A stretch of DNA of 64,000 nt from an uncultured Chloroflexia bacterium (GTDB taxonomy: Bacteria; Chloroflexota; Limnocylindria; QHBO01), in assembly GCA_963783495.1 (NCBI GenBank), contig CAWANT010000004.1, positions 277,499 through 341,498 on the forward strand, in the 5' to 3' direction. Positions within the stretch are counted from its first letter, which is position 1. Every line of letters starts with the position of its first letter. Positions 44,701 through 62,700 of the stretch are shown piece after piece. Position numbers: made by a program.

Positions 44701-47700
44701 TACCGGGCGGGGATGGACCTCAGCGTCGCCCAGCCGATAGTGGGGGCCGGCATGGGTGACGCGCTCGCCGGCCAGCAGGCGCTTGACCAGCGGCACGGCC
44801 TCCGCCAACCGATCGACGCGGCGCCCTGGCGCCTCGTACGGCAGGCCCAGCTGCCGGTAATCGGCGGTGCGCCAGCCGGCGCCCAGCCCGAGCTCGAACC
44901 GGCCGTTGGACAGGACGTCGAGCGTGGCGGCCTCGCGCGCCATGACCAGCGGATGCCGAAAGTCGTTGGCGAAGACGTATGGACCGATGCGCAGGTGGCT
45001 GGTCACCGCCGCCGCGGCGGCGAGCGCAGCGATCGGCGAGAGCTGGTGCCCCAGGTGATCAGGAACCAGCAGCGTGTCGTAGCCGAGCCCTTCGGCGCGA
45101 CGGGCAAGGTCCATCCACGCATCGCCGGATGGGGCGCTCGATGCGTGCACGGCGAAGCGAAAGTCGTGCATCGCGTGCTCCGGCTACTCGCCGATGTCCT
45201 CGTTCCAGAGCTCCGGCCGCTCCGCGATGAAGGCCTCCATCATCGCCACGCACTCCGGATCGTCCAGGACGACGACCTCCACGCCGCGCGATCGCAGCAG
45301 CTCCTCGCCACCCATGAAGGTCCGGTTCTCGCCGATCACCACGCGCGGGATCTCGTACAGCAGGATCGCGCCGGTGCACATGTCGCACGGCGACAGGGTG
45401 GTGACCATGGTCGACCGGCGGTAGACCGATGCCGGCTGCCGGCCTGCCTCCTCCAGGGCATCGGTCTCGCCGTGGCGAATGGGGCTGCCGAGCTGGACCC
45501 GCCGGTTGTGCCCCGCACCGAGGACCTGGCCGTCGACCACCAGCGCCGCCCCGATCGGGATGCCGCCTTCCGCCAGTCCGATGAACGCCTCGGACTTGGC
45601 CAGCTCGAGCAGAGCGCGATCATCGGTCTCGGCCATACCCGGAGTGTAGGCGGAGGCGGTTGGTCGCTTGGCGCGCCGGGTAGACTCGGCGGCAGACGGA
45701 GGAATGCCTGATGGTCGACAAGACCCCCAAGAAGCCACCCAAGAAGAAGCAGCCGAAGAAGCCGAAGGGCTAGCGCCCTTCCGGTCGAGTTCGGGCCTTG
45801 ACGGCGGCTCGTCGCGAGGCTGTCAGCCCGCGCGCCGCGGTCTTTGATGCGTGGAGCGGGAGACGGGGATCGAACCCGCGACATGCAGCTTGGAAGGCTG
45901 CCGCTCTGCCAACTGAGCTACTCCCGCACCGGATCACTGCGCTTCAAGCCGCGCGGTGCTGTTCGCAGTATTCCACGGAACCCACGGTGAGGCAGCGCCC
46001 GGTGCGTCCTGCGCGGTTCGTGCCCGCCGAGCCTTCTTGACCCGTGCTCCGTGAGTCCAATATTCTGGAACCATGTCCAGCGATACGGAACGCCCGCCCG
46101 ACAGTGGACTTCGCGGGCCGCTCTCTGCCCTGCGCGTCCTTGAGTTGGGAACGTTGATCGCCGGCCCATTTGCCGGTCGGATATTCGCCGACTTTGGGGC
46201 CGAGGTCATCAAGGTTGAGCATCCCGAGCGTGGTGATCCACTGCGGACATGGGGGCTGACCACCGATGGCGGCGACTCCCTGTGGCACCTCATCCAGTCG
46301 CGCGGGAAGCTGTCGGTCACTGCGGACCTGCACGATCCCGAGGACCAGGCGTTCGTCCGGCAGCTCGCGCTCGAGAGCGACATCCTGATCGAGAACTTCC
46401 GGCCCGGCCGCCTGGAGAGGTGGGCCCTCGATCCCGACGACCTGATGGCGGCGAACCCGCGGCTGATCGTGGTCCGGATTTCGGGCTATGGGCAGACCGG
46501 ACCGATGCGGGACCAGCCGGCCTTCGGCACGATAGCCGAGGCAGCCGGTGGCCTTCGCCATATCACCGGAGAGGTGGACCGCCCACCGGCTCGTGTTGGG
46601 CTCAGCCTCGGTGACTCGATCGCCTCGCTCCACGCAGTGATGGGTGCTCTCATCGCGCTCCATGAGCGAAGCCTTTCCGGACGCGGACAGGTAGTCGACG
46701 TCGCGCTGACGGAGTCCCTCTTCGCCATGATGGAGAGCATCCTTCCCGAGTACGCCTATTACGGCGCGGTCCGCGAGCGGACCGGCAACATCGCCCACAA
46801 CTCCGCGCCCACGAATGCCTATCCCTGTGCTGATGGGTCGCTCGTGTGCATCGCCGCCAATACGACCTCACTCTTCCGGACGCTGGCGGCGGTCATCGGT
46901 CGGGACGACTACGTCGCCGATCCGGAGCTGGGGACCAACGAGGGACGGGTCGCTCGGGCAGACGAGCTCGACGCCGCGATCGCTGCATGGACTCGAGCAC
47001 GGACGACTGCCGAGGTCGTCGAGACGCTGCGGGCAAGGCGGGTACCGGTGAGCCGCATCAACAGCATCGCGGACATCGCCGCCGATTCCCAGTTCCGGGC
47101 GCGCGAGATGCTCGTCGAGGTACAGGACCCCCGCCTCAACCGACCGATCCTTGTCCCCGGCGTGGTGCCGAGACTGTCGCGCACGCCCGGCGAGGTTCCA
47201 CCCCTTGCGCAGGCGCTGGGGGCCGCGACCGATGCGATCCGCGGCCGGCTCGCCCACGCGCGGAGTCGCGTCCGACGTCACAGGCGCGCCGTTAGGCGCC
47301 CAGCGTATGAGCCCGATCCAGACCTTCCGCGGGGTGATCGGTCCCGAGGAGCTCGGTGTCACCCTCATGCACGAACATATCTTCGTACGCAACCTGGAGC
47401 TCGAGCGGAACCTGCCGGATGGCGAGTGGGACCGCGACGCGGCGACCGAAACGGCGGTTCGTGGCCTGGAGGAGCTGTACGAGCTCGGGGTGCGCACCGT
47501 CGTCGATCTCACCGTGCCGGGCCTCGGCCGCGACGTGGAGCTCGTGGCGGATGCGGCGAGGCGATCGCCGGTGCACCTCGTCGCGGCCACCGGCTGGTAC
47601 ACCTCGAACACCCTCCCGGTTTACTTCGCCTTCCACGGGCCCGGGCGCCCGATCGGCGGACCTGACCCGCTCATCGAGCTCTTCATCCGTGACATCTGCG

Positions 47701-59700: not shown

Positions 59701-62700
59701 CGGCGCGGAGCGGGCGGTGCATTGCGCGGCCGCGATTCACCGCGTTTCGCAGGCGCTGGGCATCAAGCTGCGGATCGGGATCCACACGGGGGAAGTGGAG
59801 CGCCTCAGCGATAACGTCCGGGGCGTGGCCGTGCACGTCGTGACCCGCATCACTTCGCTCGCGAGACCCGGCGAAGTGATGATTTCTGGCGTCACCCGGG
59901 ACCTTCTGGCGGAGACGAGCCTAGCCTTCTCCAGCCGCGGCGAACATGACCTGAAGGGTGTTCCGCGTCCCGTCGAGGTATGGCAGCTGGAATCGGAGTA
60001 GACGCGCTCCGACGACGGCGCCCCTTGGCGAATATAGGCCGCGCGACCCGCTCCCCTGATTGCGCAGACCGAGCGAGGGCCTCGCCTGGCGACAGCGCAT
60101 AACTGCGCCAGTCTACACTCGAGCGGTCACTCGGGTTAGCACAGCGCACAGGCCGAGAGGCTTGGAAGGCTGCCGCTCTGCCAACTGAGCTACTCCCGCA
60201 CACCGGAACTGACAGTATCACGCTCAGCCGGAGGGCCTATGTGACTGCTGTCCGCAGTTCCGTGGCAAGATGGATCGGATGCCTCTTCCGAGCAGACACC
60301 GAAACCGTGGCCTCATCTCAGGTCTGGTCGCAGCGGCGCTGCGTGTTGCCCGCCGGAACGGCTACAGCCGCCGGTGCTCCTGGCCCAGCTCCCGCAGCGG
60401 GTTCACAGACCGTGTTGCCCGCTGGTCAGCAAGGGGTGGCGACCGTTGAAACGTTCTCACCCGCCGGCGAGGATGCGTTATCCCAGCAGGTGGCAATCGA
60501 TGCTGAGGGCAACGCGCTGGTGGTGTGGAGTCGGTCCGATGGCTTCCACGACCGCATCCAGATCCGGCGCCGCTCTACATCGGGCAGCCTCAGTCCGGTG
60601 CAGACACTGTCTCCCGCCCACGGTGACGCTGGCAGCCCACAGGTAGCGGTCGACGCCCACGGCAATGCGCTCGTCGTCTGGGCACGCTGGAATGGCCATT
60701 CCCACATCATCCAGCTGCGCCGCCGCTCCGCTTCTGGCACCCTCAGCCCTGTCCAAACGCTTTCTGCTTTCGGGGACGCACTCGACCCCCAGATCGCGAT
60801 TGATCGCAACGGCAACGCGCTGGTGGTGTGGGAAGCCTCGGAAGGCATCGCGGAAGCCTCATTTCCCTACAGCATCCACCTTCGCCGCCGGTCTGCGTCG
60901 GGCATCCTGGGCCCGATCAAGACGCTCTCGCTGGACGACGCTGGGTCGCCCCAGCTGGCAATCGACCGCAACGGCAACGCGCTGGTGGTGTGGCAACGCG
61001 CGGATAGCAGCGGCTCCCGCATTCAGCTTCGGCGCCGCTCGGCATCCGGCACGCTCCGCCCGGTGCGGACCCTCTCGGCCGTCGGGCCGAATACGTACAA
61101 CCCCCAGATAGCGATTGATCGCAACGGCAACGCGCTGGTGGTGTGGTCCCGCGTCGACGGTACCGGCGAGCGCATCGAGCTCCGCCGCCGCTCGGTGACG
61201 GGCGCTCTGAGCCGGATTCAGACCGTGTCAGCGGCTGGTGCGACGTCAGAGGGGCCGCAGGTGGCGATCAACTCCAACGGCAATGCGCTGGTGGTCTGGT
61301 CGCGTCGTGCCGGCAGCAGATGGAGAATCCAAGCGCGTCGCCGCTCCGTGTCGGGCATCCTGAACTTGACGCAGACCCTGTCCCCCGCCGGATTCGATGC
61401 ATTCGTCCCGCAGCTGGCGTTCGATACGGCGCGCAACGCGCTGGTGGTCTGGCAGCTCTACGACGGGACGGACTACAGCATCCAGTTCCGCAGCCGCGCG
61501 CCCTCTGGCGACCTCGGCGTGGTGCAGACCCTGTCATCCGCAGGTCCGCGTGTGGGCGGCCCCCCAGTGGCAATTGCCGCCAGGCGCCGCGCGTTGGTCG
61601 TTTGGAGCAGTTACGACGGCACGAACTTCCGCATCCAAGCCGCGCGACCCGCTCCCTGATCGCGCAGCCCATTGCCAATGCGACAGCGCGTAACTCGGCG
61701 CGTTACGCTGACACCGCCACCTGCGATAGCACAGCGCACAGGCCGAGAGGCTTGGAAGGCTGCCGCTCTGCCAACTGATCTACTCCCGCACCGACCTGAC
61801 AGTATCGCGCTCAGCCGGAGCGCCTAACTGCGCTTCGCACCGCCCGGCTCTGTTCGCACCAGTATTCCACGGAACCCGCGGGATGGCCGGTGGCATCTCG
61901 CCTTCGGGCGGGCTGCATGGCGCCGTGGGTGAACCGGCGATCTACCGGCGAGTGCGCCGAACCGTCAATGCCACCCGCCGTTCGGCCTGCAATCTAGCTT
62001 CCTGCCAGCTCGTTTGCGAGGCCGGTGAACAGCTGAAACCACTCGAAGAGTTCGATGCCGTATCGCTCTCCGTTGCGCACCACGATCAGCTGATCATCTG
62101 GGGAAACAAATATGAACTGCCCGTGGTTCCCGGCAGCGCTATAGGCGTAGGAGCCGTCGGGCGCCGCAATTCGCCACCAGTAGCGAGCATGCGAGATGGT
62201 CCCGAAGTCCGATTGGAACTCGCTCGGGTATGCGGCCGATGAGGCGTTTGCTCCAGGCCGAGTCGAATCGTCAACCCAATGGTCGGGGATGACCTGCTCA
62301 TTCGCCCAGGCCCCGCCTTCCAGGTAGAGGCGCCCAAGCTTGGCGAAGTCGATGGGGCGGGCATTGATGCCGCTCTCCATCTTCTCGAACCCACCCTCGC
62401 GGTCGAGACTCCAGGACGCGGCAGATTCGGTACCGATCTTCGTCCAAAGTTTTCGCCGAGGTAGTCGGCCACCGGCATGCCGGTAGCCCGCTCGAGGACC
62501 AATCCGAGCAGCAACGGGTTGTAGTTGTCGTAATGCCAGCGCATCGCCAGGCGCTTCGTCAATCTGGGTGCGCTCCATCGCCAGACCACGTAGGTCGTCG
62601 AAGTAGTACGTCAGCGCGTCGTCGCCGTTCGGCAACGGGAACTCCTCGTAGTGGATGCCGGAAGTCATATCGAGCAGGTGGCTGATCGTGATGTTGGCGA

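Follow-up and report, generated by a model that had tools for sequence, protein, structure and literature searches.

The window, by which we mean the whole stretch of 64,000 nucleotides that was analysed, from the genome of an uncultured soil Chloroflexota (Limnocylindria), harbours a single tRNA gene, tRNA-Gly(UCC), and, upstream of it, two displaced copies of the 5' half of this gene, each of which is embedded in a truncated module of about 200 bp. We assign a probability of roughly 55% to the reading that the DNA on the 5' side of the gene consists of accreted, integrase-less islands which stem from site-specific integration at tRNA-Gly(UCC), taking place on the 5' side and centred on the anticodon loop. 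The module shows one anatomy and one breakpoint, it recurs in other genomes together with other cargo, the reciprocal junction is present in one relative, an integrase gene adjoins the tRNA gene in another one (L001, see below), and a compositional shift is observed in the window. The tRNA gene and the modules, the latter delimited by nhmmer (with an arm model and an upstream model) and by motif searches, are located as follows:

45852..45927, minus strand: copy A, the intact tRNA-Gly(UCC) gene (ARAGORN), CCA encoded; the putative regenerated target gene
45928..45990, minus strand: flank upstream of copy A; its homologue at copy C has a conserved block of 30-31 nt that is missing here (alignment)
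60081..60245, minus strand: truncated module B, with the arm at 60081-60159, tRNA positions 40-1 at 60160-60199 and the upstream block at 60202-60245
61671..61885, minus strand: truncated module C, with the arm at 61671-61749, tRNA positions 40-1 at 61750-61789, the upstream block at 61792-61830 and a further flank at 61831-61885 which is homologous to the flank of copy A

ARAGORN agrees with the preliminary description in placing an intact tRNA-Gly(UCC) gene at 45852-45927, the only tRNA in the 64-kb window, and assigns it to the minus strand, so that its 5' end points to the right in window coordinates. The tRNA adopts a cloverleaf fold (z = -2.5). Relatives, which are referred to by the L numbers of their loci, were found via the deaminase gene on the 3' side of the tRNA, the best matches being metagenome bins of Candidatus Limnocylindria (Chloroflexota); copy A is identical or nearly identical to the tRNA of L001, L002, L006, L082, L083, L087, L088 and L093. 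Exact-match look-ups of the window's deaminase and of the protein P0008 returned no record, and the contexts retrieved for the protein P0214 stemmed from an unrelated synteny. The source of the repeat is 45888-45929, i.e. tRNA positions 1-40 plus two upstream nucleotides. Copy B (60160-60201) matches these 42 nt without exception (40/40 in the tRNA part), while copy C (61750-61791) deviates from them by one mismatch at 61779 (39/40 in the tRNA part). The recurrence of a perfect 42-mer within 64 kb is far beyond chance. The perfect and the one-mismatch repeat had been described before with coordinates correct to within one base, although as 41-nt repeats rather than as 42-nt portions of a module of about 200 bp. 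All three copies are in direct orientation on the minus strand, and both the orientation and the placement of the fragments are as expected for the configuration proposed from the outset, namely integration into the 5' part of a tRNA gene.

Each module is composed of a conserved upstream block, tRNA positions 1-40 and an arm of about 75 nt, which in module B comprises the linker CTCTCGGCCT and the motifs GCGCTGTGCTA and AGTTATGCGCTGT. Modules B and C are related to each other over about 190 nt (60012-60240 versus 61613-61826), including the last 45 nt or so of a repeat-protein gene. A metagenome scan with the upstream motif and the start of the tRNA yielded eight contigs, to which a later context look-up added the 86-kb contig L093. 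There are eight truncated copies in total: B and C of the window, one each in L081 and L084, and two each in L086 and L093. In all eight the breakpoint is tRNA position 40, two nucleotides past the anticodon loop, and in all seven with downstream sequence the continuation reads CTCTCGGCCT, GTGCGCTGTGCT, about 35 nt and AGTTAYGCGCT; the sequence of L081 covers 15 nt beyond the breakpoint and breaks off in the linker. Beyond the arm, the similarity among the copies stops sharply. The truncated halves differ from the tRNA by zero to two mismatches per 40 nt, whereas the genomes are 75-85% identical elsewhere.

In sequence, the arm corresponds to a diverged copy of the initial part of the upstream region. 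It repeats the motifs GCGCTGTGCTA and AGTTAYGCGCT of that region, which thus flank the core on either side, and the arm may have originated by duplication. Profile searches of all sequence examined detected the arm exclusively joined to a truncated half (seven copies) and the upstream region exclusively joined to the tRNA or to a half, and a motif search located the two arm motifs at B and C only within the window. Wherever modules and tRNA are found on one contig or on two joined contigs (window, L093, L082 plus L084), the modules lie upstream of the tRNA in direct orientation.

The counterpart of the truncated halves is provided by L097, where only tRNA positions 30-76 remain. They adjoin the deaminase gene, whose side of the locus is 87% identical to the window at the nucleotide level, while their 5' side is joined to other DNA. 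The overlap of the 5' fragments, which end at position 40, with this 3' fragment, which starts at position 30, is G30-C40 (GC-CTTCCAA-GC), that is the 7-nt anticodon loop flanked by two stem nucleotides on each side. A crossover within the upstream motifs instead of the anticodon loop was considered and rejected, since the array boundaries of window module B, L086 and L093 contain the full upstream block plus the half and thus more than the mere motifs.

L001, L002 and L083/L108 share about 85% nucleotide identity with window positions 43.0-45.9 kb and the order tRNA-Gly, small antisense open reading frame (ORF), deaminase. Upstream of tRNA-Gly, the DNA differs in every relative:

L001: tyrosine-integrase gene
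L002: membrane-protein gene
L083/L108: regulator of 906 aa of the AAA-LuxR type
L087: glutamate dehydrogenase
L088: ORFs of unknown function
L109 (more distant): unrelated genes, no module
L082+L084: deaminase, tRNA-Gly, hemACD-hemBQLEH (about 8 kb), truncated module, tRNA-Glu-like 3' fragment, TAXI-TRAP transporter
L086: one cyclase-ATPase-TPR gene between two modules
L093: module, 2.3 kb, module, 3.9 kb (BTAD-ATPase-TPR regulator), intact tRNA, all on one 86-kb contig

L082 and L084 were joined on account of a 127-nt overlap at 100% identity. The largest arrays consist of two modules plus the tRNA. As regards the empty site that the preliminary description suggested looking for in related genomes, the DNA upstream of the tRNA varies among the relatives, and in none of those whose tRNA end was covered does the right flank of the window abut the tRNA.

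In the window itself, the GC content amounts to 70.6% in the core (1-45851), to 67.4% in 45928-60160, to 67.0% in 60201-61750 and to 64.5% in 61792-64000. Core and 45928-60160 differ with p = 1e-6 (Mann-Whitney test, 500-nt windows), and none of the 14.2-kb stretches of the core falls below 69.2%. For Pfam-validated genes, the GC content at third codon positions (GC3) is 0.91 +/- 0.03 in the core (n = 12, including cytochrome oxidase, IspG, CorA and ABC transporter genes) compared to 0.83 +/- 0.03 in the segment (n = 11; p = 9e-5). Both values fall exactly at tRNA-Gly. The windowed GC and codon profile across the tRNA boundary is accordingly not flat, and the more frequent use of A/T-ending codons noted in the preliminary description is borne out. 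The lower GC content reported there is real as well and starts from the tRNA, yet the shift is smaller than the proposed 62-65% implied, and the GC content does not recover past the last repeat.

The only integrase at the locus was found in L001, where a gene annotated as "site-specific integrase, partial" (PF02899) starts 130 nt from the 5' end of tRNA-Gly and is divergently oriented. A relative of this integrase in L089 follows the 3' end of another tRNA at a distance of 93 nt, in the classical 3'-side orientation. In both cases the 5' end of the integrase gene faces the att site; what is turned round in L001 is the tRNA gene. An element with "reversed target orientation" was reportedly described by Zhao & Williams in 2002 (J Bacteriol 184:859); compared here through the citations of later papers, it resembles L001 in that, as far as these citing papers tell, the 5' end of the integrase gene faces the att site and the tRNA gene is reversed. 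Within 45.9-64 kb of the window, no recombinase is present among the sizeable ORFs, which belong to other families or have no match in Pfam, NCBIfam and PHROGs, nor does any ORF resemble an excisionase, a transposase or a conjugation gene. In tblastn searches of the window, the N-terminal fragment of the L001 tyrosine recombinase gave a chance-level match (E = 8.7), and the catalytic domain of the L089 integrase gave nothing at E <= 1. The initial statement that the segment is free of integrase, recombinase and transposase genes therefore withstood searches with protein families and with tyrosine-recombinase domains.

These observations lead us to the following proposal. Islands would have been added successively by tyrosine-recombinase-mediated, site-specific recombination at a hot spot upstream of tRNA-Gly(UCC), with the crossover taking place in the anticodon loop of the tRNA in a mirror-image ("5'-side") configuration. 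Anticodon-type tyrosine integrases cut at the anticodon loop. One arm of the incoming element would be formed by its own upstream region along with tRNA positions 1-40, the other one by the arm of about 75 nt. Integration would fuse the 5' half supplied by the element to the resident 3' half, and the resident upstream region and 5' half would be displaced to the far end of the element and become joined to its other arm. Repetition of this event would generate the array of module C, repeat-protein gene, module B, catabolic cluster and intact tRNA, leaving a full module at each boundary as is seen in the window, L086 and L093. The window segments, which lack an integrase, would be remnants or would have been moved by an integrase supplied elsewhere. 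We infer that an integrase made the module junctions, and the conserved arm motifs are predicted to be integrase binding sites resembling those of the arm type.

Several results weigh against this proposal. No integrase is encoded within the window segments, no mobility gene lies within reach of the L082/84, L086 and L093 arrays, and the evidence for an integrase is confined to L001, whose 3.2-kb contig covers solely the N-terminal 87 aa at its end. Neither a circular form nor an empty site was observed: scans of viral contigs with four DNA patterns (junction and upstream region) and with the integrase protein produced no match. Copy C is no clean border between island and chromosome, since the low GC content persists beyond it to the end of the window. 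Copies A, B and C have lineage-specific upstream sequence in common, which requires resident elements or gene conversion. The housekeeping heme-biosynthesis operon bracketed in L082/84, the GC content of which equals that of its flanks, is odd as it is an unlikely cargo of a mobile element. Finally, L090 joins the catabolic cluster directly to the right flank without any module, which may also be read as a 3.4-kb insertion in the lineage of the window.

L090 is the closest relative (94% nucleotide identity). It is collinear with the window from 64000 to 61983 and continues directly with 58613-48603, where the L090 locus ends. The missing part is the following:

58614..61982: stretch absent from L090, 3,369 bp (blastn of L090 versus the window)

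It is flanked by the stop codons of the cupin and serine-hydrolase genes, which converge on it, shows short CCGCCG microhomology at both ends and contains both modules, the repeat-protein gene, the cyclase, a 135-aa ORF and a 71-nt repeat. L093 retains 134 nt of the cupin gene of the window (77% identity), separated by about 57 nt from the arm of a truncated module and in collinear order, which indicates that the junction of module and cupin gene predates the split of the lineages. Because this junction is common to the window and L093, loss of 58614-61982 from L090 by deletion appears more parsimonious than its insertion in the window. Of the earlier claim that the segment is bounded by the repeats, the distinct composition holds, whereas the right-hand boundary does not: the low GC content runs on, and L090 connects the cluster to the serine hydrolase without modules.

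Much of this evidence can also be arranged as turnover that is independent of an integrase. A single ancient event would have made the module, and RecA-type recombination across its 130-200 bp of homology would since have looped out segments, re-inserted them in a Campbell-type manner and shuffled them, gene conversion maintaining the similarity of the copies. We hold this to be unlikely, even though it would fit the lack of an integrase in four of the five contexts that hold modules, the homology of the copies reaching well past the tRNA into the upstream region, the lineage-specific upstream variants common to A, B and C as under concerted evolution, the native-looking hem operon bracketed in L082/84, and the arm being a diverged copy of the upstream region. 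It leaves unexplained the L097 junction, where tRNA positions 30-76 are joined at the anticodon loop to DNA with at most faint likeness to a 5' half, the constant stop of tRNA identity two nucleotides past the loop, and the integrase gene beside the tRNA 5' flank in L001. Nevertheless, given the lone integrase fragment, the arrays without integrase, the hem cargo, the shared upstream sequence and the unclean border at C, a large share of the turnover may be due to homologous recombination between modules, whether in place of an integrase or in addition to it. A quite unlikely view is that the modules are inert pseudo-tRNA paralogues which arose by local segmental duplication, the surrounding variability being due to unrelated indels and the repeats not being island ends. 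L090 lacks both modules while cluster and right flank are contiguous, its junction shows CCGCCG microhomology only, the low GC content is not bounded by copy C, and a tandem duplication of about -98 to +40 would presumably yield the observed succession of half, linker and upstream motif. Neutral pseudogenes, however, should have decayed, while the halves show no more than two mismatches in 40 nt; arrays with different cargo occur in at least four lineages; the modules are consistently found upstream of the tRNA in direct orientation; and the module-cupin junction common to the window and L093 makes deletion in L090 the more parsimonious event. Tandem duplication of the tRNA promoter region, which the preliminary description had offered as an option, likewise fails to explain the common breakpoint, the reciprocal junction in L097, the varied cargo and the L001 integrase.

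That the truncated module is itself a functional gene, in which a small RNA composed of the tRNA 5' half and the arm is expressed from the upstream block, e.g. an antisense regulator of the convergent neighbour, strikes us as very improbable. Upstream block, half and arm are all conserved and the gene next to the arm is convergent wherever it is visible (window, L084, L086), but the upstream block is degraded in one of the L093 copies and no terminator-like site was found. The consensus fold of the module pairs the tRNA half with the arm; yet this hairpin does not exceed shuffled sequence in stability (z from -1.0 to +1.2, single-strand DNA folds), RNAalifold detects a compensatory change in just two of the 37 pairs, and an Rfam search of 59900-62000 gave no match. 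The module thus lacks the hallmarks of a structured non-coding RNA family, and we dismissed the attC-like or structured-RNA reading for these reasons. An assembly artefact caused by collapsed or chimeric tRNA copies has a practically negligible probability. Frame changes relative to intact orthologues in several core genes do suggest an error-prone assembly, but the three copies have distinct flanks, and the truncated junction recurs in the independent assemblies of other samples and sequencing centres (L081, L084, L086, L093), which disposes of the suspicion, voiced at the outset, that the repeats result from collapsed tRNA copies.

Integration on the 5' side of tRNA genes is known. In the Islander collection (PMC4383910), 159 of 3919 islands (about 4%) have a 5' fragment compared to 3760 with a 3' fragment, an anticodon-centred attP is the commonest class (2083/3919), and tandem arrays are known from it as well. 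In a review of archaeal elements (PMC6563490), which cites Zhao & Williams 2002 among others, 5'-distal recombination is called "considerably less frequent". In Islander, 5' fragments have to lie upstream of the tRNA gene and 3' fragments downstream, and an integrase is required (PMC4383910). The window offers an intact tRNA gene and fragments of the same gene on one replicon in like orientation, 5' fragments upstream of the gene (B and C at higher coordinates, minus strand) and a crossover at a recognised subsite (the anticodon loop and two nucleotides on each side); as it contains no integrase, it falls outside strict Islander membership. It shares with the 5'-fragment islands the intact tRNA gene with one or several cognate 5' fragments upstream in direct orientation, the anticodon-loop-centred breakpoint, the tandem arrays and the requirement that the element provide the 5' part of the gene together with the upstream region. 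It differs from them by the lack of an integrase in its segments, by the length of the repeated unit (about 200 bp) with its two paralogous arms, and by a cargo that consists of single genes or, in one relative, of a housekeeping operon. The locus is therefore best filed as a new example of this minority class of tRNA-linked islands, not as a case of a new mechanism. The twist is the conserved, portable module of about 200 bp which brackets varied cargo in an uncultured phylum.

Two further systems invite comparison. CIMEs (cis-mobilisable elements), known from ICESt1/CIME of Streptococcus thermophilus, are att-bounded segments without recombinase which are accreted beside integrative elements and can be moved in trans. 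The window resembles them in its arrays of att-bounded segments that lack a recombinase of their own beside a gene target. In ICESt1/CIME, however, this target is the 3' end of a protein-coding gene and the att cores are short, whereas here it is the 5' half of a tRNA, and a full cognate autonomous element is not seen. The likeness to integron arrays concerns the layout only: the tyrosine recombinase gene of L001 diverges from the insertion point, the blocks end in a repeat resembling a recombination site, and they may consist of single genes. In contrast to integrons, which are defined by an IntI-type integrase, attI and attC cassettes, no IntI-type integrase was identified, the window being free of any integrase, and the module forms no significant attC-like hairpin (z from -1.0 to +1.2); in addition, the blocks extend up to 8-14 kb, their gene orientation is mixed and a tRNA gene serves as anchor. 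It would go further to regard the module as a dedicated recombination site recognised in trans, and the 5' side of tRNA-Gly as a cassette platform on which blocks of one to a dozen genes are taken up, stacked and exchanged by an integrase encoded elsewhere. We deem this distinctly improbable; if it applied, the locus would be a tRNA-anchored analogue of the integron with blocks that include regulators, catabolic clusters and a heme operon. The displaced tRNA upstream blocks might then also fire antisense into neighbouring cassettes.

Under the proposal of 5'-side integration, the locus would be the first hot spot of integration to be mapped in Candidatus Limnocylindria, a class of soil and freshwater Chloroflexota that is abundant and uncultured; a full-text literature search retrieved no paper naming this class together with integrases. 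Island finders which demand a 3' fragment plus an integrase would miss 5'-fragment islands of this kind. As the module is defined by its sequence, variable, horizontally acquired DNA, comprising catabolic clusters, large ATPase regulators and candidate defence genes, can be delimited with it where metagenome bins of this clade are fragmented. Should the integrase-less arrays have retained their mobility, they would constitute a simple natural system for trans-mobilised gene blocks. A practical warning concerns assemblies, as contigs of Limnocylindria relatives tend to break at the tRNA-Gly locus: in L001, L002 and L006 the contig end lies 340-530 nt from the tRNA on its upstream side, in L081 and L085 inside a module, which fits repeats or strain variation breaking short-read assemblies.

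The upstream sequence of copy A deserves separate treatment. In front of the intact tRNAs of L001, L002, L082, L083, L087, L088 and L093 there is a conserved region of about 88 nt (consensus GCGCTGTGCTAACGTCGATnGGCnAGCGAAnnGACAGTTAnGCGCTCTGnnTGAGCACGAAACTGTCAGATnCGnT), whose conservation starts abruptly at GCGCTGTGCTA. Its most conserved part is the block TAGGCGCTCCGGCTGAGCGCGATACTGTCA, which is present at B and C but not at A. Copy A (45930-45990) and copy C (61831-61885) are about 85% identical over some 55 nt, apart from an indel of 30-31 nt. Where the family consensus ends in CAGTTAGGCGCTCTGGCTGAGCACGAAACTGTCAGATCCGGT, copy A reads GCGCAGT followed by GATCCGGT and the tRNA, which equals the canonical sequence minus 30 nt between short CAG repeats, CAGT(TAGGCG...CTGTCA)GATCCGGT. 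Since the 31 nt adjoin the intact tRNA in the seven relatives named above, copy A carries a deletion. The resemblance of the two flanks had been recognised correctly, whereas the supposed 31-bp insertion at copy C turns out to be ancestral sequence that was deleted at copy A. L001, L002 and L083/L108 match the window up to about 50-90 nt upstream of the tRNA, and this stretch resembles the flanks of C and B, not that of A.

Judged by its position and conservation, the upstream block could be the promoter of the tRNA, with TTAGGC, a 17-nt spacer and TACTGT or AACTGT as its elements. A scan with the sigma-70 consensus does not call it, for which reason we did not adopt the promoter label and treat this role as presumptive. 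No sigma-70-like site was found on the tRNA strand beside copy A, and the divergent CoA-transferase gene next to it has a good promoter-like site. A part of the upstream block, GCGCTCTGGCTGAGC (e.g. at about 495-560 of L002), repeats the tRNA D-arm region GCTCAGTTGGCAGAGCG imperfectly and in inverted orientation, a likeness reflected by weak reverse-strand nhmmer matches (E about 0.0015).

The remaining features around and within the segment are the following:

45184..45636, minus strand: cytosine/creatinine-type deaminase (Pfam), conserved chromosomal neighbour on the 3' side of the tRNA
46073..58605: catabolic cargo (Pfam, NCBIfam); L090 has at least 48603-58613 at 94% identity
58640..58710: interspersed repeat of 71 nt (blastn), also found four times in L091 and seven times in L092
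59147..60001, plus strand: class III nucleotidyl-cyclase gene, 284 aa (Pfam Guanylate_cyc, NCBIfam)
60012..60060, plus strand: remnant of a second beta-propeller repeat-protein gene copy, from its 3' end (direct repeat matching 61613-61656)
60241..61659, plus strand: beta-propeller repeat protein with 153-nt repeats and an NGNALVVW motif (Pfam, NCBIfam)
61997..62938, minus strand: serine hydrolase of the beta-lactamase family, its Pfam profile split across two frames; intact in relatives
63391..64000, plus strand: N-terminal part of a cyclase-domain protein which runs off the window (Pfam, tblastn)

From the tRNA onwards, the catabolic cargo comprises a family III CoA-transferase, a PTE-family hydrolase, a Zn-alcohol dehydrogenase, the TRAP transporter DctPQM and two IclR regulators, followed by a SauS-like acylating aldehyde dehydrogenase, an acetolactate-synthase-like thiamine pyrophosphate enzyme, a citryl-CoA-lyase-like protein and a small cupin (58234-58605). 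By its gene families, it looks like a system that takes up a small organic acid or sulfonate and degrades it in a CoA-dependent manner. Next to the cupin come the 135-aa ORF, which is without family, the nucleotidyl cyclase, module B, the repeat protein, module C, the serine hydrolase and the cyclase-domain gene. The repeat protein, the sole gene between modules B and C, matches weakly to "PDIAV motif-containing lipoprotein", an N-terminal signal not being evident. The serine hydrolase has an intact relative of 414 aa at 93% identity (P0004), and the terminal cyclase-domain protein has a counterpart with 98% identity in L090 and shares 47% identity with that encoded beside the distal module of L093.

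The gene of the 284-aa cyclase is 99.65% identical over 857 nt between the window (59147-60003) and L091 (16086-16942). This identity extends from the ATG to two nucleotides past the stop codon, both flanks being unrelated, and the serine-hydrolase gene near the cyclase is just about 90% identical between L091 and the window. This looks like a very recent transfer or conversion of exactly one gene. The 71-nt repeat (about 65-71 nt, beginning with ACGGGGGCCGGCGCTCCGTGGCAGCGTGACCATCGGCCAGGATGGTGAGCGGCTGGCGCC) lies within the 3.4-kb stretch that L090 lacks, some 30 nt from the left end of this stretch; the copies of the repeat in L091 and L092 are intergenic, and it may be an element similar to a repetitive extragenic palindrome (REP) or a miniature inverted-repeat transposable element (MITE).

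Further observations concern the tRNA-Gly locus of the relatives. At about 5300-5345 of L084, the tRNA-Glu-like 3' fragment (ending in GGTTCGAATCCTGCCGGGGACGCCA, opposite strand) directly adjoins the upstream region of the module, the first motif of which it replaces. No intact tRNA is predicted there by ARAGORN, and the fragment may be the scar of a classical 3'-side integration. In L093, a pair of HipA_2 and DUF3037 genes (8850-10008), which matches the PADLOC candidate PDC-M66 (A: 1.5e-24; B: 4.7e-8), is found immediately before the start codon of the deaminase on the 3' side of tRNA-Gly; the locus hence varies on both sides. Between the tRNA and the deaminase gene of the window, 45711-45773 (plus strand) contains a lysine/proline-rich ORF of 20 codons (MVDKTPKKPPKKKQPKKPKG), convergent with the tRNA, whose peptide is kept in L001, L002, L006, L082, L083, L087 and L088 despite 75-85% nucleotide identity.

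Broken genes within the segment, namely that of the serine hydrolase and of DctP, the Pfam match of which is confined to profile positions 2-158 of 286, might be taken as a sign of a decayed island, one of the options of the preliminary description. We abandoned this argument because frame changes relative to intact orthologues are found in the core as well: intact ORFs of L006 align to it in two or three frames at 33300-34120, 35460-36810 and about 39420-39530. Probably, the window sequence contains indel errors, or else several core genes are pseudogenes. In the COX1 gene (26593-28059), the Pfam profile is matched only from position 92 onwards. A single ORF of 737 aa at 21860-24070 combines COX15/CtaA (heme A synthase) and UbiA/CtaB (heme O synthase) domains; it adjoins the cytochrome oxidase subunit genes and may represent either a fusion or an unrecognised frame join.

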